DNA of 63,421 nt, filler included, from Licmophora abbreviata (taxonomy: Eukaryota): NCBI GenBank assembly GCA_900291995.1. It is 11 parts of 11 records of this genome, joined end to end, with 100 filler letters (N's around TTAATTAATTAA, not from the genome) between each part and the next. Parts side by side here need not be neighbours in the genome. Positions count along the whole stretch, not along the records: positions 21,893 to 26,261 come from OLMU01000216.1; 10 more parts are not named here. One strand, given 5' to 3'. The notes beneath the pieces were generated by a model, which saw nothing but the letters and a program-made list of their open reading frames with translations, was not told the origin of the DNA and made no database searches. The position numbers were made by a program, and so were the translations under genes. Positions 11,843 through 28,289 of this stretch are shown here, in pieces. How positions within the stretch are numbered: the first letter of the stretch is position 1; the number at the start of each line of letters is the position of its first letter.

Positions 11843-11942
11843 NNNNNNNNNNNNNNNNNNNNNNNNNNNNNNNNNNNNNNNNNNNNTTAATTAATTAANN
11901 NNNNNNNNNNNNNNNNNNNNNNNNNNNNNNNNNNNNNNNNNN
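11843..11942. other. Artificial contig/scaffold linker N44-TTAATTAATTAA-N44; same linker at 21793-21892, 26262-26361, 29577-29676, 37067-37166, 43368-43467, 51251-51350, 54545-54644, 58911-59010, 61195-61294
   Basis: Identical 100-nt N-padded spacer with stops in all frames, present ten times. Confidence 0.98.
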
Positions 11943-16685: not shown

Positions 16686-18852
16686 ATGCCAAACAAAGCC
16701 ATTCTGATTCTCGCGGCATCATGCTTTCTGACCGTGCTCAGTCCATCGACGTGCTTTGCACCCAGAATAAGAGGATCCAATGTAGAAATTAAGTACCTCT
16801 CGATTCGCCCGGCAATTGGACGAGCGCGACTGGTACGACTTATGACGGATTTCTCAATGGGTGCAACCTCAACCGGAGAAACTGCACAGGAGGACGACGG
16901 CGACTCGATTCGGAAAGAGATCACTTCGCGAGACATGGTCACTGGCATTACCACCCATCTTTCTGAAGAGTCCACTATATCAACTGAAATCGCAATGGAC
17001 GTACTCGCTCATCAGCAACATGCACACGACGAACCAAGTACAATGCTCACTGACCCTGTGGAAGCCACGAACGCCAACACCACGGAAAACACCACCACCG
17101 CAGCTGCCGTCGACACCATCGAGGCGCCAAGTGTAACCAAGATTCTCAAGTTCGCCATTCCGGCGATTGGAGTGTGGCTCTGCAGCCCACTACTTTCCCT
17201 CATTGATACCAGTGCCGTCGGGTTGCTGTCGGGCACCGCGCAGCAAGCCGCGTTGAACCCAGCCGTCGCGGTCACGGAGTACACCGCGCTTCTCATTGTA
17301 CGCGTGCTCATTGTAACTCTGACTACGATTTCTCCCATTACTAGTTTTGTGGCTCTCACACTTACTTGTTTCGCGTGCTGCTAATCTGCATCAGGCGTTC
17401 ATGTACACCGGGACGACCAATCTAGTGGCGGCGGCACAGGAAGACGATAGCGGTGACGAGAACAAGCCTCGAACGAGTCAAAATTTCATATCGGCTCTGC
17501 AGCTGTCGGGGTTTGTCGGAGCGGCGCTTGGAGCAATCCTGTTAGTGTTCTCAGTACCCATTCTTCGCACAATCATTGGCAACGACGCGATTGATCCAGA
17601 GGTATTCTCGGCGGCACTTCGGTATGTACGAATACGTGCACTGGGGATGCCAGCAGCAGCCATCATCGGTTCTGCACAGGCGGCCTGTCTAGGGATGCAA
17701 GACATCAAAAGTCCACTCTATGTACTCTTGGCGGCAGCCGTGGTGAACTTTATTGGCGACGTAAGCTTTGTGGGTCGGGCGCATCCTTGGATTGGAGGTG
17801 CCGCTGGCGCTGCGTGGGCAACCGCCTTTTCTCAGTATGCCGCAGTCGTTTTCTTTGTGCATTGGCTCTGTCATCGACCTGTTTCCAGTAATGTTAAAGG
17901 AAGACTCGGGTTTTTGTCAAGGCGATTGGACATGCAAAAGAAGAAGACTTCTACAGCGAACGAGGGGCACTACTCAACACGGGGATTCCTGGAAGGAAAG
18001 TTCCGCGGTCGATACTTTTTCCGCCTTCCCTCTCGAGATATGATATCAAATTTCACGCCGTATGTGGTCCCGGTGACGAGTACACAGGTCGGTCGGGTAT
18101 CGAGCTATATCTCGATGAGTCACGTGATTTCGAGTTCGCTTGGAACGACAAATATGGCGGCTCAGCAAGTCATTATATGTACGTATGGACTGCGAATGAG
18201 GTATTTGTCAAGCATCATGTCTCGGGATTTCTCTCATGTTACCGAGTCTCTCCGCTCTGTAGCATTATGGAACTGCCTGTACCCGGTTGGAGAATCGTTG
18301 AGTCTTACTGCGCAGAGTTTCGTTCCATCGCTTTATGCGAAGCATCCCAGCCCAAGCCGCTGCGCGGCACTTCGGCAGACCCTTCTCAACTTCTGGAAAG
18401 CCGGGCTTGTCTTTGGAGCGGGCTTGTTCGGAGCCGTCATGTGCATTCCTGTGCTCAATCCATTCTTTACATCTGATCCTGCTGTCATATCAGTGGTAAA
18501 CACTATTGTACCGCTATTACTAGTGATTTTCTCGACACTCGGCATTTTCACCTCGAGCGAAGGAATGCTCTTGGGGCAGCGGGATCTGGGCTTTCTTGGG
18601 AAGAGCTACGCCAGTTTTTTCTTCATCGTACCGTACTTGATGCTGCGAGTAAAAAAAGCGGCAAAATCTGGTGCCAATGTGAATCTGAGATCGCTGTGGA
18701 CCGTTTTCACGGCATATCAAATCTTTCGGACGGCAATGTGGATTTGTCGAGCCGCTTTGCTCCAGAACAGAACACGACGAGAGACCCAGGAAACGCTGAG
18801 AGAGCCAACAGATATAACTGAAGACGGTAGTCAGCGACACCGGTACAATTGA
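16686..18852 (+). CDS. MATE family transporter (copy 2, tandem paralog), probable plastid presequence
   Basis: Same core motifs as copy 1; signal peptide ending STC-F; introns 17298..17394 and 18179..18262. Confidence 0.92.
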
Positions 18853-18981: not shown

Positions 18982-20972
18982 TCACTGCTCAAAGAAGCGG
19001 TCCCAGACCCAAAGGTTTGTCAACCACTTTTCGCCCTCCTGGACCGGATTTGCAGCGTGTTGCGACAAGTCGTCGCTGTTTCCGTCCGGGAGTTGATCAT
19101 AGAACAGGATAGCCTACAGAACGCAAAGATGCAGTTGTTAGGCAACGAGAAATCATGATTCAGCCTCTCTAGAGTAGCATCATGGTGTAGCTGACGAACT
19201 TGGTTTTTGAACTCACTTTTCCGACTTGCGGTACGGTATTCAACCCGCTCGACGTGTCCGCATTCACCCATCGTGGGAAGGACGTCGTACCTCCGACCAT
19301 TCCTTCATTCAAATAGAATAACAGGGTCGAGAATCTTTCATTCTGGTGTGGCGACTCGACATAGGCGTAACCAAAATCGTGGTGCTCGTTGTAGGATTGG
19401 TTCGGTGCGTAGTGCACTAACTGAAGTGACTCTGCAGCCGATACACTTGGATCATGGTCTGGATACTCGTCCGCATCTCGCATGCGGAAGAGAGCTTCGT
19501 CAATACGGAGCAAATCAGCCGCACGGCGGTATACCGAATCGATAATGGGACTCTTCTCACGTGAAAACCACGAGTTGAAGGATGAGCGCACGTCAAGCTC
19601 ATCCACTGTTCCGACGCTGGAAAGAGACAAGTCCTCACCCTGTGCCAACTGCAAAATGTGTTGCACTTCAACAGGCGAGAGAAAGTTCTGGATCTCGAGT
19701 ACCCTCGGTGCCACCGAAAGAATCTTTAGGGTTAAATTGAGAATGGGGTCGTTTATTCGATACTGCTGCAACAGTCGAGGATCATCGTCTGATAGCACTC
19801 GTCTCTTCCCTCTCGCCGTGATGGGTTTCAGTTCCTCTGCCGGCGGAGACTCGATAATGTGTGTTTCCCTCGTCGTCACCCAGTGCTCTTGCCCGAAATA
19901 CTGTGACAAAGGGCAGAAATGCGGAGGCAGAGAGTGTCAGTTGAAAACTCGTCGTCAAACTGATGGAATTCTTGGTTGACACTACAAAAGGCCGTCTACG
20001 TTTCACTCACCTCAGCAGGCCACATAAAATGAGACGGAGGCGAGCGAGGAAAGTTGACAAGGTACGAGCGCCCCGTAAAATTCAGATAGTGCTCGTTGAA
20101 GAGAACGGTACGCCGCAGTATGTTGTACATGTCTCGTTCCGTGTCAGTCAGTACGGATAAATTCTTATCGGTCGCGTCCTGATCGCCTTGTACAAAGTAG
20201 GGGTCGTAGTGATGGACCGAGTGCGGCGCGTGGGCAATCTCGAAGCGAATCAGGGGTGTCGCTGGGTCCGATACGTCGGCAAAGAAGAATTGGTGGCCGG
20301 GATGGACAGCAGTCCCCTCGTTGTGAAATGGCGCTGCGTCAAACATGGCAATAGCATCGGAACCATCGAGGGGATCCCAAAAGAGCGTGACATGGCGATT
20401 CGACATGTTGATGAACTTTCCAGCCAATCCTGGAAAGTCTGGTTGCTGTGCTGTAGGAGAAGGAGGATCTCGATCCTTGTAGAAGGTCGTCACATCTGTA
20501 TGTAGAATTGGGGAGGCGTCAATACAAGCGTGATGCCGTTATACTAGCATATGAGCGGCGGCCTTTACACATGGGCGTGTTTGGAACGAATCGAACCATC
20601 AAGAGGGAGTCGACTCGACTCACCTGGTTGGACATACGCCATGAACGTTTCCTGTCCATTTCCGATGTCAAACTTCATTTCGCGGAGGTTCGGATCGAGA
20701 CTGTTGTCTCTGTACGGAACAGAATACTGAGGAGTCTTCTGCTGCTGATGCTGTGATGACACAGTCTGCTGGTTCGCACCGCTCTCGCTAGCACCAGGAC
20801 TACACGTCCCAGTTTTGACGTCAGTTTCGGCACACTGCAGCGGCTCGGCCGAGCTCTTATTGACCGACACATTCCTATCGGTGTATACTGATGTGCTGGA
20901 AGCAAATAGGAGCCAAAGGAGGCCCGAGAGCAGTAGAAACGAGCAGCTGCGAGGCCTCGATGTCATGGTCAT
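18982..20972 (-). CDS. Prolyl 4-hydroxylase alpha-like 2OG-Fe(II) dioxygenase with signal peptide
   Basis: Motifs PRVLEIQNFLS, ESLQLVHY, HHDF, LLFYLN, GGTTSFP, HAANPV..GEKW; introns 20496..20623, 19901..20010, 19114..19216. Confidence 0.88.
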
Positions 20973-21792: not shown

Positions 21793-21892
21793 NNNNNNNN
21801 NNNNNNNNNNNNNNNNNNNNNNNNNNNNNNNNNNNNTTAATTAATTAANNNNNNNNNNNNNNNNNNNNNNNNNNNNNNNNNNNNNNNNNNNN

Positions 21893-23368
21893 GCGCTTTC
21901 GATTCTGGTCGATCCAGGTGCAAATCTGACGAAAGACACGTTGACGACGCTGTGCCTTTTCGTCCTGCAAGCGCTTCAACTTGTCCGAGGCGAGCTTGAC
22001 CTCGTCGCGCGCCTCTGTGGCTTGGTTTTGTAGATCGCGAGTGGCTTTCTTGGCTTTTTCCATGGCGGGACGATGGCGTTGAAGCTCATCGCTCGCTTGC
22101 TTGGTAGCGGTGGAAAGTTCTTCCTGGGAAGGATGGTCAGCGATCGCCGTTTCGATATCCTTCAGCTTTTCTTGCTGACGCTCGACATCACGCACGGCCT
22201 TGTTCTGCTCTGCCTCGAACGAGTTCATTTGCGCCTGCAACTCCTCCAATTCATCCGCGTGTTTTTCGTGCTTCTGCTTTTGTTTCTGAATATCCTTCTT
22301 TCCCTTGGTAAGAGCCGAGTCGAGCGTCTTGTACTTGGCCTGCGCCCGTTCCGCCTTGGTCCTTAGTTCCGCAAATGCCTCTTCCAGTGGCTGCAGCTTG
22401 GCTTGGGCGTCACGCAGCTGGTTCTTCTTCTCGTCGCGCGTAGCCTTGAAGCCGACTGCCTTGTTGCGGGCATCGTCGTACTTGAGCCAAACATATTTTT
22501 TCTCCAAGAGTTCGACCTGTTCAATGGCCAGTTCTCGCTGTTCCATGCGTTGCTTTTCTCGCTCAAGCCGCTCGTTTTCCGCTTCGAGCTTCTTCAATCG
22601 ATCCTGAATCGTTTCGAGCGAAGCGCCGCCCTTGAGTAAGTCTTCCTCCATTTGGATCAATTTCTGATGTGTGTCGTACAAGTGCTTGTTGCCCGACATG
22701 CTCTTTTCCGTTTCACAGAGAAGATCTTGAGCATTGAAGCCACTAAAGTTTCCTACCCGATCTTGTGGAAGAAATGTACAGAGATTGTCGACGGAAATGT
22801 GATAGGTGTCTTGGACCAGCTCCTTGATCTTCTTGGCGGATACCTTTTCGCCATTGATGTAAAAGCTCGAAGTGCCAGTGGAGCGAGACTTGGCGTTGGC
22901 AGTATGCTTGTGTTCAATGACACGACGAAGAGTGTGTACTGGTTGATTGGGAAGGGGAGTCAGCTCGAGTTCAACGACAGCCCGGTCCTTCTCGTGCATG
23001 ATGAATGTGGCAATGTCATCCGCACGGCCGAGAAGCCTGGGCTCTCCGCCGAGTCCGAGGCAGATGGCGCAGAGAATTGTGGATTTTCCCGTTCCATTGG
23101 GACCGATCACCATGTTGAGCCTGGAGTAACGAGGAAGAGGGAAAAGAACGTAAGTGCACGGAGCAGACATGGCATTTCCGGTATAAAGTAGTACAGGCAG
23201 TCGCAATAACGACTACTTTCATCGCATCTATTTTCGCATTCGTTTCGTTACGTACCGCGGTCCAGGCTCTACGACGACATCACTATACGTGACAAAGTTG
23301 TGCATCTTGATGCGACGCAACGACCCTGGCTTGTACGCGCCGATCTTCTTCTCTAAAGACGACGCCAT
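21893..23368 (-). CDS. SMC5: Structural maintenance of chromosomes protein 5 (N-terminal part, truncated by linker)
   Basis: Exon 1 GSLRRIKMHNFVTY..PGPR; intron 23121..23255; LNMVIGPNGTGKSTILCAICLGLGG; NLCTFLPQDRV; coiled coil. Confidence 0.93.
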
Positions 23369-23411: not shown

Positions 23412-23662
23412 GTTGTGAAGTGAAAAGTAAGTTCGGAAGGTTTTGGATAAATCTGGCTGGTTTTGCATTCTACTCAAATTCTGATCATTTTTTTCTATTT
23501 TTCTAATCGACGAGCTATTTGCGCCGGTATCTTTGAGAGGACCTCAAACACACGGACTCTCTTTCAATAACACCAAATCACCGCAATTTCACTGTAACAC
23601 GATGAGACGAGTCGGCATCACAAGGTATTCATCGTAGGGCCTTTTCACTTTATGCAAGCATC

Positions 23663-25274
23663 ATGACGCCGGAATCCAACAACAGCTCATCAAACTCCAA
23701 TAAAGTCAAGATTGTCGTGGGACACACATGTCGGAGGATTGGAGGGGACCAAAAAACGTCGAAAAACGCCACAAACAAAGGGCGCCGCGGCAATAGGTCG
23801 TCGAGATCGTCACCCCGACATGCGTGGACGGTGTATCTCGATGTTCTTGACGGAAATCGCGATCTCATTTCGCAAGTTCAATTTAATAGTGATTTGTTCA
23901 TGTGCAATGGCACTGTCACCAGTCAGTGCTACCAACGCCGTCTTAGAAGTAACACTGATGGCACGTACAAGACCGCCTGGCGCTTTCAGACGTCTGAACA
24001 AGTCAGCTCGAAAACAGGCGGCACTGTGACAATTCGCTACACTGGACGTGGAGGAACCGTGCGATCATTGACTCACACGCTTAGACTTCAGGAGGGAGAA
24101 TCCAAGGGCGCTCCTGTTGTCTTTGTAGAGCCACGACCGCTACTGCCTCTGAAGTTTGTCAAGATGGCAGACATCGATTTCGGTATCGAGCTAGAACTAT
24201 CCTGTGCCAAGGGGACTCCTCAAGAAGCCATCGCGACTCTCTTGCAGAAACACACAGGGGTATCTGTGTATCCAAGACATCCTCGGCAGTACTACGGCGA
24301 TCGGATGGATGGATGGAAGCTTGTTTCCGACGGAAGTATTGTCTGCAGTCGGCACTCGCCAGAGTGCAGTCGATTCGAGTTGGTCTCCCGTGTCTTAAGA
24401 GGGGGAGTAGGACTCAACGAGTGCAACAACATACTCAACGCCTTGAGTATATTGGACTCCATTAGTGTCAACAAGAGTATGGGATTCCACGTCCACGTTA
24501 GCGTCGAGACTCTATCGGTCCAACAGCTTGTACAGGTGCGGTTGGTTTGACGAAGCGAATGGCACACTCGTCGTGCCTCCATACATAGTCTACCGGTATG
24601 ACTTCAGACTTCATGTGACAACTCATGGGACTTATCTCTTTTTTCAATTATAGGTGTGTCAGAATTTCGTCAAGTACGACGACGTCATTGATACCTTCAT
24701 GCCGCCGTCTCGTCGTACCGGAAGCGACGAAAGCAAGCGGTACTTCAAGAGCAACAAGCGGGCTGTCATGGGTCAAACAGAAGGAACCAACGCAAAGCGG
24801 CACAAGAAGATTGGCGCATGTAAGAGTATACTGGAACTGTGCGATCTAATGAATCCAAATGACGATCGCTACTACAAGTTGAATCTGATGAATCTCAAAG
24901 TGGGAAAGCAGCCCACTCTGGAGTTTCGACAGCACTCGGCCACAAGCGACTACTCAAAGGTTGCCGCTTGGGTTCGATTCTGCGTGACGCTAGTTTACAA
25001 CTCAGCAAATGAAGCCAAAACAGCGCCTTGGACAGGCAAAGGGAACGACAAATTTGACGATTTGTTTGAACGGCTCATCCGAGATCGAGCTCTACGCGAC
25101 TTCTTCGCCAAACGACGCGAAGAGCTGCGTCGCGAGAAAGTGACCCCTTGTTGTAGGCATTGTGGCCATGGCATGGCACGTGAGCAGCAACGAGATGTAT
25201 CAGCAGCTGGTGGAGTTCCAGTGCATCGAAGGACTCAAGCAAATAGTCCGGCCCGCAAGCGAAACCGTCGGTAA
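23663..25274 (+). CDS. YEATS-like domain fused to a putative amidoligase (COOH-NH2 ligase, Amidoligase_2-like)
   Basis: N-terminal KIVVGHT..HAWTVYL..ISQVQF; then FGIELE, WKLVSDGSI, FELVS, GFHVHV, RYYKLNL, TLEFRQH; intron 24536..24653. Confidence 0.8.
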
Positions 25275-25317
25275 GCGTCGGATAAAGCGTACGGGTGAAG
25301 AAACGAGAAACGCGGCA

Positions 25318-25500
25318 ACCGCAAACGACCAACGAAGAAGCGTACACTCCAAGTTCTCTATGCATCAGATTGTTAGATATCATGGCTAAGAATAAGATGC
25401 AAGGCGTTATGGAACAGCCCCAGGATAGTTCGTTTACATCACGACGCTCGCTGAAATCAGTCCACACCAGCATGGAATTCCTCGTGCACCTTCTTTGGAA
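25318..25500 (-). pseudogene. Degenerate tandem duplicate of the PEX11 last-exon 3' end and 3' UTR
   Basis: Aligns by eye with 25509..25695 (shared accgcaaacgacc, aagcgtacactcc, catggctaaga, ggatagttcgt, gctcgctgaaatcagtccacac, cctcgtgca); indels break the frame. Confidence 0.75.
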
Positions 25501-25605
25501 TATCTGCGACCGCAAACGACCTGCCAAAAAGCGTACACTCCATTATCTCTATGCATTCGATTTACAGTAGATGCCATGGCTAAGAGTTTTAGAAGATGCA
25601 AGTCT

Positions 25606-26261
25606 CTAAGGATCAGCGTCGGGATAGTTCGTGTACAAGACGGTGCTCGCTGAAATCAGTCCACACAAGCAATGGAAACCCTCGTGCATCTTCTTGCCTC
25701 GAAAGCGCTTGTGCAGATCAACCCCAGGCGTGTTGCTGAAAACAATAACGTCACAGCAGCTCTATGTTACAAGACAAGCACGAGCAATGTTGAAGTTTGT
25801 GAGGATGACACAAAGTCGATAAAGCGCGTTGTTCGAATATGACGCCGAATGCCGCACCAGCATACCTTAAGAAGCGGGATGAAGAGGTCAAACTGCCTTC
25901 GCTTAAGGTCTTCCAGGACCTTCTGAAATTCTATTGTCTCGACACCGTCGTCGTTCGGAATACGATCCATCTGCTCCTGGAGAGGCTTGAGCTCATCCCG
26001 CTGAAACATCCAGTAGGATCTCGCAGCAGTCGCGAGACCCGCGATACACCCCGCAAAGTAGCTCCGGGCGGCAAATCTGGACGCTTCTGACGACATTCTA
26101 CTCCTTCGCTCTCCTCTCTCCTTCGATTCCAAGGAGTAGTCGTCGAGGAATCCGGACGACGCGATGAATGACACGTTGTCTGCTGCCCAGAAGCCGAAGA
26201 GTCCGACCATTTTCAAGGCCGCCCCAAAGACTTTCCATGCTGGAGACTTGATTGGACTCGG
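25606..26261 (-). CDS. PEX11: Peroxisomal biogenesis factor 11 (C-terminal part)
   Basis: LKMVGLFGFWAADNVSF; intron 25762..25865; last exon SCCDVIVFSNTPGVDL..GFHCLCGLISASTVLY. Confidence 0.75.
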
Positions 26262-26361
26262 NNNNNNNNNNNNNNNNNNNNNNNNNNNNNNNNNNNNNNN
26301 NNNNNTTAATTAATTAANNNNNNNNNNNNNNNNNNNNNNNNNNNNNNNNNNNNNNNNNNNN

Positions 26362-27142: not shown

Positions 27143-28289
27143 CTAGCCTACGAAATGGGGCGTCACTGTCACAGCGGCCGTCGGCTCCGACTTGGCGTGA
27201 TACCCGCCGCCATTGTGCTCACCTTTGACCGGCGCCTCGTTGTGATTGACGTGAATCATGCCACCTTGTATGGGAAACGCAACATTGTCAATCACAACAT
27301 ACTGACCGCCTGCATCTATGCCTCCCATGGTTCCGAAAACCGGCACCATTCCCGTTCCGTTAAATCGCGGAGAACATCTCTGTGGGAGCGGGTAAGAGTG
27401 CCCCGACGCAAGCATGACCTCAGCGAGCCCGCTCGTCATTTTAGTAGCTGGGACTGATGACGCTTGATGCATCGACTCATCAGAGCCACTGCCTCCCGAA
27501 TCTGATGGATACAAGATTGGTTGTGAGGGCGCCGTTGGAGATGGCGTTATGTATGTTGGTTGCTTGGCCGATGAAGCCGAAGCAAAGTTTGGGAACTGAT
27601 TCGTCTGCTGGATGAGCTGAGGTTGTGCGTGCACCGTAGTGGTAGTATCTACGTGATGCATCGGTCGGACCGTGTGCACCGCAGCCGATGGTGGCATGGT
27701 GACGCCGGCTCCGACAGCATGCGACACGAGTTCGGCCCGGTACTTTTGGAAGAGCTCCGGCGTCACGTGCAAACTAAAGTTGATCCGAAACAAGAAGTCC
27801 ACCTCGAGACCGTTCATTTCGGAAACCAGCACACCTCCGACTTTGGCGTAGTAAGCATTGTTGTAGTAGGCGTCGTCAAAGAACTTGGCGGCGAGCAGTA
27901 TCGCTGTAATAACGACGCGATGCACGTTGAGTTCCGTCAAAAGAAAGTTGTTTCGCTGGATAAGGCGATCGACGTAGATGAGCGCCAAGACATAGCACTC
28001 ATTCGAGCAAGAGGCATACTTGTGGATTCTGACACGAGGCAGAGCGTACAGATTGTCAGTGCATGTCTTCATTCGGTCGTGAGTCCTTTCTGCGCAGCAC
28101 TGCGACAACGTACCGTTCCAGATATTGCTCAATCCCGATTCCAGGAGCTTTCAGCGCGTGAAACTTTGTGACCTGGCCTGGATCCGCAACTGCGAGGGAA
28201 GCATTCGCTCCGACAAGACGTTCGAGAACTGCCGCCAAGACTTTCACCAACGCCGCTCCTTCGGCAGTTTGTTCCGGTGTAGTTTCCAT
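27143..28289 (-). CDS. P/U-type (PHO80-like) cyclin
   Basis: [56 protein letters not shown]; intron 28029..28113. Confidence 0.93.

Follow-up and report, generated by a model that had tools for sequence, protein, structure and literature searches.

A YEATS-type beta-sandwich fused to a predicted Amidoligase_2 ligase in a Licmophora abbreviata gene

YEATS domains are known as readers in chromatin complexes; for Amidoligase_2, an enzyme family widespread in phages and bacteria, no reaction has been assigned. The eukaryotic YEATS proteins (GAS41/YEATS4, YEATS2, AF9, ENL, Taf14 and Yaf9; PF03366) are subunits of such complexes and share an immunoglobulin (Ig)-like beta-sandwich, while carboxylate-amine ligases of the glutamine synthetase (GS) fold use an established acyl-phosphate mechanism that depends on adenosine triphosphate (ATP). 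Amidoligase families were reportedly defined by Iyer et al. in 2009. Here we describe a gene at 23663-25274 (+) in a 63,421-nucleotide stretch of Licmophora abbreviata DNA (assembly GCA_900291995.1), made of 11 parts joined end to end and called the window below. The gene lies in the part taken from OLMU01000216.1, and in its product a YEATS-like domain with the same sandwich fold is fused to a predicted Amidoligase_2 enzyme.

This fusion is visible in automatic annotation and undescribed in the literature searched. No paper on an amidoligase together with YEATS was found in our searches, and among the titles listed for diatom amidoligases and for YEATS in Phaeodactylum none dealt with this family. 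According to one paper, a function of phage amidoligase-GATase pairs in cell-wall modification or in the synthesis of metabolites has only been 'suggested' (PMC10580990), and one preprint lists the prokaryotic YEATS family, pYEATS, as a ligand-binding sensor domain of bacterial conflict systems. Klebsiella CfmP was considered and set aside as not relevant, being an ATP-grasp enzyme.

The interval holds one intact two-exon gene whose spliced product is 497 amino acids long. An in-frame stop at 23603-23605 precedes the first in-frame ATG at 23663, and the coordinates are exact. Exon 1 (23663-24535, +; residues 1-291) encodes the YEATS-like domain, a linker and the first half of the ligase, and ends at a codon boundary immediately 5' of a GT. 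The intron (24536-24653, +) is a phase 0, GT..AG intron of 118 nucleotides with an in-frame TGA inside, and exon 2 (24654-25274, +) encodes residues 292-497 and a TAA stop at 25272-25274. Removal of the intron brings together positions 3-127 and 134-244 of the Pfam Amidoligase_2 profile, and the spliced product aligns colinearly with 121 relatives, without a gap at the exon junction. The intron that a preliminary description of this DNA had suspected is thus borne out by its GT..AG borders, the in-frame stop, the clean split of one Pfam profile and the gap-free spliced alignment, and the fusion it had proposed, a YEATS-like domain and an amidoligase in one gene, stands with the two-exon model and with both domains confirmed. 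The gene call of P0003, the closest relative found (48% identity across exon 1), departs from the family alignment into unrelated sequence at the very codon of the exon 1/intron boundary, as would be expected if an intron at a conserved position had been left unspliced. In MMETSP transcripts of relatives marked 'type:complete' (e.g. P0031), both halves are found on one mRNA. No second copy of the gene was found within the window, and we regard this one as most likely an intact nuclear diatom gene.

The C-terminal two thirds of the protein are an Amidoligase_2 domain, predicted to be a ligase of the GS fold with an active site that appears complete apart from one Glu-to-Asp change. Both exons score above the PF12224 gathering cut-off of 22 bits: residues 171-288, on exon 1, match profile positions 3-127 of 245 (E 1.3e-14, 55.2 bits), and exon 2 matches positions 134-244 of 245 (E 1.7e-7, 31.8 bits). 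The N-terminal part of the domain (24173-24535, +; residues 171-291) carries GIELE, WK, DGS, FELVS, NKS and GFHVH, and the C-terminal part (24663-24992, +) carries KYDD, PPSRR, KSN, YYKLN and EFRQHS. All the ligase motifs named in the preliminary description were located, with GIELE at residues 174-178, DGSI at 223-226, ELVS at 239-242, GFHVH at 274-278 and EFRQH at 381-385; the PF12224 matches on both exons and the GS-fold matches of a relative, given below, agree with them. Conservation of ligase residues was compared across 121 diatom proteins and 10 phage or bacterial ligases. The invariant residues present are E176, E178, W218, K219, D223, S225, E239, N270, H276 and H278 in the first half, and D304, R311, R312, R363, K366, N368, T379, E381, F382, R383, Q384, H385, K393 and W397 in exon 2. 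The anticipated alignment of catalytic Glu, His and Arg with ligase active sites was accordingly found at every shared invariant listed here, the one exception being residue 300, where Glu has become Asp.

The ligase fold was examined in P0005, the closest full-length relative, which is 47% and 57% identical to exons 1 and 2. Its full-length model, built with the 121-sequence alignment, has a predicted local distance difference test score (pLDDT) of 91.4 and a predicted template modelling score (pTM) of 0.91, and because of this pTM the two domains are taken to be placed confidently relative to each other, forming one rigid unit in the model. When P0005 was compared with 48,161 PDB representatives by VIA-align, 27 rows reached Z>=8. 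YEATS chains account for eight of them (Z 11.1-13.4, residues about 1-144) and carboxylate-amine ligases for the other 19 (Z 8.2-14.0, residues about 143-448); below these comes a generic Ig-like domain, at Z 7.8. The ligase matches include the YbdK-like protein 1tt4 (Z 14.0, 241 aligned residues), glutamine synthetases (Z up to 13.3), a plant glutamate-cysteine ligase (Z 12.2), Dop (Z 11.5) and PafA (Z 10.8). Solved ligases of this fold (1tt4, GS, gamma-glutamylcysteine ligases and PafA/Dop) share it with P0005 over about 230-250 aligned residues, but at an identity of only 8-14%, and the diatom family lacks the GS-type N-terminal domain; searching the PDB with the family profile recovered no GS-fold ligase by sequence at E<=10. 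The linker between the two domains is conserved, with F135 in 108 and E137 in 112 of 121 proteins.

The N-terminus is, on the evidence of structural modelling, a YEATS-superfamily beta-sandwich (23702-24130, +; residues 14-156), as supported by the AlphaFold2 model, Foldseek, VIA-align and hhalign, and the assignment is sound at the level of fold and family. Residues 1-168 have no Pfam match of their own at E<=1 and no NCBIfam match. A word-indexed homologue search with this region returned nothing, and only 2 proteins were recovered when an alignment of homologues served as the query. An exhaustive phmmer search of 1.84 billion representatives gave 17 proteins at E<=1e-3 (best 5.4e-19). One of these, P0006, is a 4700-residue bacterial Ig-repeat protein and was dropped as a low-complexity match. 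Among the 16 real homologues, Amidoligase_2 was found in 8 and pYEATS and/or YEATS Pfam matches in 7; P0012 exceeds the cut-off of pYEATS PF20305 (28.9 vs 26.9 bits), while the best PF03366 score is 20.0 bits against a cut-off of 22.

The AlphaFold2 model of residues 1-168, built with the 16-homologue alignment, is all-beta (pLDDT 82.6, pTM 0.76). Foldseek returned 79 PDB matches at E<=1e-3 (best E 6.1e-5); the rows listed are YEATS structures (Yaf9, Taf14, ENL, AF9, GAS41, Sas5 and YEATS2), with one further row for a chain from an entry on a Mediator pre-initiation complex, the title giving no clue to the identity of the chain. The top 50 VIA-align rows for this model are YEATS entries only (Z 9.9-11.4), the best of them with a root-mean-square deviation of 2.6-3.6 A across 106-117 residues and 18-20% identity to GAS41 and YEATS2. 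Z values of up to 11.4 here and the PF12224 scores of the ligase half lie well beyond chance. The strings IVVGHT (residues 17-22), HAWTVYL (53-59) and ISQVQF (69-74), on which the YEATS pattern had originally been recognised, are all present and fall on the predicted strands E14-26, E52-64 and E69-76. The basic insert noted with them is present too: a Ser-rich stretch read from the sequence (23741-23818, +; residues 27-52), it lies in the loop between strands 1 and 2, is longer than in relatives and is modelled with low confidence (block means 57-64). A nuclear-localisation role for it is only a guess. The proposed YEATS fold of the N-terminus is in this way upheld by structure prediction, by the YEATS entries returned by Foldseek and VIA-align, and by the alignment of the family profile to bacterial pYEATS.

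By sequence, the domain appears nearer to prokaryotic pYEATS than to eukaryotic YEATS. A sample of 401 bacterial genomes gave 8 with a pYEATS match, 6 of them above the cut-off, and six open reading frames (ORFs) were confirmed by Pfam and aligned. In hhalign, the profile of the 121-member family matched these six proteins with Prob 92.0 and E 6.7e-7 over 80 columns, and of the 122 family members, 46, with P0005 among them, were matched at E<=1e-3 by a hidden Markov model (HMM) built from the six, which matched none of the 10 phage or bacterial ligases. The bacterial pYEATS motifs LHxTF and GWGxF align to LGxSF and xYGxx[VFI] of the diatom family, and PF20305 is the best sequence-level relative of the diatom N-terminal domain. 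The bacterial domains are shorter, whereas in the diatom family there is an additional stretch with the invariant WRF, and strands 1 and 2 are connected by a long loop; the sampled bacterial pYEATS proteins carry no ligase, unlike the diatom family. In the ESM Atlas feature search, pYEATS/YEATS clusters made up 28 of 30 matches with a top score of 0.92, at a query recognition value below the level of strong evidence. The HxW and VxF strands of eukaryotic YEATS also align with the diatom family, although no diatom member scanned reaches the 22-bit PF03366 cut-off and the window protein likewise falls short of it. Single-sequence searches of the PDB gave matches at chance level only. In a PDB search with a profile of the homologue alignment, AF-9 appeared at E 1-2 only; designed repeat proteins led that search through a shared 'PDGxxWRF' string and were taken as spurious.

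The ligand pocket was compared through the alignment of the family profile to AF9, using the numbering of chain 7vkg_A. YEATS proteins make up ten of the 11 PDB sequences that an hmmsearch with the family profile matched at E<=10, namely eight constructs of AF-9 as well as TAF14b and ENL. We take AF9 F28, H56, S58, F59 and Y78 to line the acyl-lysine pocket, with S58 and F59 as its Ser/Thr-Phe after strand 3 and Y78 in its aromatic-Gly before strand 6, a role with which the PDB entry titles 'F28R mutant' and 'Y78W mutant' are in line. In this pairing, AF9 F28 corresponds to a conserved Lys at family position 36, H56 to a Gly, S58 to Ser/Thr at position 64 and F59 to Phe at position 65, so that the AF9 Ser58-Phe59 pair appears as Ser/Thr-Phe in most diatom members while His56 and Phe28 are exchanged for Gly and Lys. 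The Trp-Gly of the bacterial GWGxF motif falls at family positions 97-98 in hhalign. Considered as a whole, the main family gives the impression of a functional YEATS-type binder whose pocket is rather basic.

The window protein departs from this pattern. Positions are numbered as in P0005, and conservation was counted in the 106 members outside the clade of the window protein. Lys at position 36 (95 of 106) is Pro in the window protein, Asp at 39 (97) is Ala, Pro at 67 (95) is Asn, Phe at 70 (97) is Val and Gln at 94 (104) is Glu, while His at 38 (104) is retained. At the positions aligned with the pocket itself, Ser/Thr at 64 (93) is Phe79, Phe/Trp at 65 (101) is Met80, Tyr/Phe at 97 (84) is Ser115 and Gly at 98 (87) is Ser116. 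By alignment, the YEATS pocket residues are therefore kept in the main family and missing from the window protein, in which the fold-core residues W55, D60, F74, R107, F108, G128, G131 (GRGG), F154 and E156 are retained. In a FastTree phylogeny in which the 10 phage or bacterial ligases serve as the root for 122 family proteins, the protein belongs to a five-member clade with P0005, P0021, P0022 and P0023 (support 0.92), nested in a 16-member clade (support 0.95) which has lost most of the conserved residues counted above. Given these changes, the window protein has probably changed its ligand, lost binding or kept the domain as a scaffold only.

The architecture is shared by a large diatom family. 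With P0005 as the query, at least 336 proteins were found at E<=1e-5; among the matches listed, both domains are covered by 87-100% in all 120 relatives, and every relative with a species name is a diatom (Seminavis robusta with three, Mayamaea, Thalassiosira, Fragilaria, Chaetoceros, Synedropsis, Attheya and Cylindrotheca). Precomputed YEATS or pYEATS matches stand beside Amidoligase_2 in 10 of these 120 relatives (PF03366 in 3, pYEATS in 8), and an Atlas cluster of 62 proteins, automatically named 'YEATS domain-containing protein' and mostly from Bacillariophyta, corresponds to this family. Three members, P0016 (769 residues), P0018 (686) and P0020 (713), keep the YEATS-like domain and have a long C-terminal extension; their ligase motifs have decayed, without DGS, FELVS or GFHVH, and P0016 and P0018 have no Pfam Amidoligase_2 match. 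These may be pseudo-enzymes with a binding or scaffold role only. Other domain combinations were observed as well, including an MsrB/SelR domain (PF01641) and Amidoligase_2 in one protein (P0119), a RanBP2-type zinc finger in 19% of the members of one diatom amidoligase cluster of the Atlas, and fusions to SWIM, DUF3489 or GATase in its bacterial and phage amidoligase clusters.

Outside diatoms, relatives of the ligase part were identified in phages and bacteria. Pattern scans yielded 375 confirmed relatives among 381 candidates in phage contigs and 150 among 162 in bacterial genomes, and only the ligase part was matched in either set. Ligase-domain identity is 29-38% for the best 80 phage loci and 30-41% for the best 80 bacterial loci, with GxExE, DxS, ExVS, GxHxH, RR and TxEFRQHS shared. 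These phage and bacterial Amidoligase_2 proteins are stand-alone enzymes of about 300-350 residues or are fused to DUF3489, SWIM or GATase. None of the 160 loci examined contains a YEATS-amidoligase fusion, and neither the diatom YEATS HMM nor the bacterial pYEATS HMM detected a YEATS-like ORF within 3 kb of them at E<=10; pYEATS gave no match in the five bacterial genomes with the closest ligases. Seven loci scanned with Pfam resemble prophages or integrative and conjugative elements (ICEs), with terminase, ParA, DUF3408, reverse transcriptase, Dam methylase and DUF3489 fusions. The IMG/VR viral contig L007 and the Fibrisoma montanum locus L089 have an identical ORF layout round the amidoligase, with a YobI-like P-loop NTPase downstream, and are probably the same prophage. 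Judged by sequence comparison, both parts of the diatom protein resemble those of prokaryotes or phages, and the fusion seems to have been made in diatoms. A horizontal origin followed by later gain of the intron is plausible. In the phage and bacterial collections compared, ligases at 29-41% identity came out as the closest relatives from outside diatoms.

We consider it rather probable that the protein is a ligand-guided, ATP-dependent amide ligase composed of an Amidoligase_2 enzyme and a YEATS-type recognition module, and we rank this general reading above those that specify a histone, a defence or a small-molecule role. By analogy with the structural relatives, a carboxylate would be activated as an acyl-phosphate with the help of ATP and of a metal bound by Glu and His, and attack by an amine would give the amide. 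The YEATS-like module would serve as the part that recognises ligand or substrate and would keep a group of the amide or acyl-lysine type, from either the substrate or the product, close to the ligase. The Ser-Phe and aromatic-Gly conserved in most of the family, together with the family-specific Lys/Arg, would fit an acidic amide ligand (such as a gamma-glutamyl or dicarboxyl-acyl lysine).

Several results weigh against this interpretation. Asp300 replaces a Glu found in all 131 other proteins, whether from the 121 of diatoms or the 10 of phages and bacteria, making the window protein the sole exception, and the ligase fold was tested on P0005 and not on the window protein. Taken alone, the hits of the family profile among solved YEATS chains (E 0.16-2.3) do not reach significance, and the window protein is unmatched by the bacterial pYEATS HMM and has no Pfam YEATS or pYEATS match at E<=1. 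At pocket-equivalent positions it has Phe79/Met80 and Ser115/Ser116 in place of Ser/Thr-Phe and Tyr-Gly, and in the wider family the residue aligned to AF9 His56 is Gly in 72 of 106 members. Demonstrated activity was found for no Amidoligase_2 enzyme in our literature searches, and for that reason the proposed ligase chemistry is drawn only from the fold and the residue pattern.

More specific roles were also weighed. One is that of an enzyme making a free gamma-glutamyl-type amide or a similar small molecule, with the beta-sandwich serving only in structure, oligomerisation or allostery. The best structural matches of the ligase would suit it (the YbdK-like protein at Z 14.0, GS, gamma-glutamylmethylamide synthetase and 1-naphthylamine GS), as would the retention of the N-terminal fold core in the window protein while pocket positions vary, and the pTM of P0005, which suggests a fixed structural association. 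The pocket-equivalent and nearby polar residues (K36, D39, Q94 and Q95), however, are strongly conserved in the 106 members and point to a specific ligand site, leaving this a possible, if doubtful, role. Somewhat less probable is a function in conflict or defence, where a diatom expansion of mobile-element parts would use the pYEATS-like domain to sense a viral or stress ligand and the ligase to modify a viral or host target or a metabolite. The closest non-diatom ligases do occur in phage contigs (375 of 381 confirmed) and in prophage- or ICE-like bacterial contexts, one preprint cites pYEATS as a sensor domain in prokaryotic immunity, the family is large with a ligand-binding surface that differs between subclades, and the ligase site has decayed in some paralogues (P0016, P0018). 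Yet a fusion or an adjoining YEATS-like ORF occurs at 0 of 160 phage or bacterial loci, and the genes around this one in the window, SMC and cyclin, are ordinary housekeeping genes, so that we think a defence role unlikely.

A chromatin role, in which the YEATS-like domain would bind acylated histone lysines in the nucleus and the ligase would add glutamate or another group to histones or nearby proteins, had been raised from the motifs and is, in our estimation, quite unlikely. In fold, the domain matches the histone acyl-lysine readers GAS41, YEATS2, AF9 and Taf14 (Z about 10-13), the pocket-aligned Ser-Phe and aromatic-Gly persist in most family members, the window protein has basic stretches in its insert and C-terminus, and another diatom amidoligase cluster includes the RanBP2-type zinc finger in 19% of its members. 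Set against these are the closer sequence relationship to pYEATS, presented as a ligand sensor of conflict systems in one preprint, the loss of pocket residues from the window protein, and a number of paralogues per species (three from Seminavis robusta among the top 120) that is unusual for core chromatin machinery. An acyl-lysine reader coupled to a histone-modifying ligase is accordingly possible for the family and unsupported for the window protein. A broader and still less probable idea is that the diatom family writes and reads a new lysine modification which needs ATP and no coenzyme A. The GS-fold ligase would join a carboxylate (the glutamate gamma-carboxyl or a dicarboxylic acid) to lysines of target proteins in a PafA/Pup-like manner, and the pocket of most members (Ser/Thr-Phe, Tyr-Gly and Lys/Arg) would bind the same acidic acyl-lysine, so that the mark could be spread or proof-read. 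Subclades whose pocket has been remodelled, that of the window protein among them, would have shifted to other ligands. Least probable of all, in our view, is that the window protein is a decaying or catalytically weakened paralogue without the family function. Its Asp at a Glu invariant in 131 of 131 others, the change of the fourth tail Cys to Arg, the N-terminal changes of N to H, Y to C, K to P and D to A, and the loss of the near-invariant Pro75 would agree with decay; but the frame is open throughout, both splice sites are intact, every other ligase invariant is present, the exchange of Glu for Asp is a conservative one, and the subclade with P0005, P0021, P0022 and P0023 is itself conserved (support 0.92).

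A rigid fusion kept across diatoms in hundreds of copies offers a handle on both the YEATS and the Amidoligase_2 problems. The reader half gives a hint of the group that is made or acted on by the ligase, and with the ligase half an enzyme would for the first time have been found physically joined to a YEATS-type pocket. The pocket-keeping main family and the pocket-less subclade form a natural control, and diatoms are major primary producers of which several are transformable, making localisation, knock-out and mass-spectrometry tests practical.

Additional cysteines distinguish the diatom proteins. The CCxxC tail of the preliminary description is present as CCRHC (25149-25163, +; residues 457-461, with C457, C458 and C461). 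It belongs to a family motif CCxxCx5C, in which Cys occupies the successive positions in 116, 118, 114 and 110 of 121 proteins, and the fourth Cys is Arg467 (codon CGT) in the window protein. A second intron at GTGAGC near 25180, which would restore the fourth Cys, was rejected: the Arg codon CGT stands exactly at the Cys position, and such an intron is also excluded by its size of less than 40 nucleotides. The Cys tail is modelled with low confidence (pLDDT 44 in P0005). The pair C228 and C235 (DNA about 24344-24367) lies in a diatom-specific insert before FELVS that the bacterial proteins lack, and C293 (24657-24659) is located just 3' of the intron. All of these, C228, C235, C293 and C457-C461, are invariant or nearly so in diatoms and absent from the 10 phage or bacterial ligases, and they could represent a metal site or a lipidation signal. 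The protein ends in a basic C-terminal tail read from the sequence (HRRTQANSPARKRNRR; 25224-25271, +), and similar basic tails also follow the Cys cluster in P0075 and P0026.

In the vicinity of the gene, an ORF with SMC_N and AAA_23 matches (an SMC-type ATPase head and coiled coil) was identified at 21893-23212 (-), transcribed away from it. About 450 bp separate the starts of the two, so a shared bidirectional promoter is possible. Directly 3' of the gene there is a direct two-copy duplication of about 195-200 bp (25315-25495 and 25506-25695), with three matching segments (57, 79 and 24 nucleotides) that are 82-88% identical and lie 191-200 nucleotides apart; Tandem Repeats Finder reported nothing there. 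Further features in the window are a PHO80-type cyclin ORF at 27143-28150 (-) (E 2.4e-30), a fragment of a MatE-type transporter at 17323-18852 (+) (E 5.7e-11) and, at 19169-19936 (-), a weak 2OG-Fe(II) oxygenase match under the cut-off (22.2 vs 27 bits). Paired runs of 44 N with 12 bases between them were observed at ten places in the window (e.g. 11843-11942, 21793-21892 and 26262-26361), and the SMC ORF and the ORF downstream of the gene are each interrupted by one such pair.

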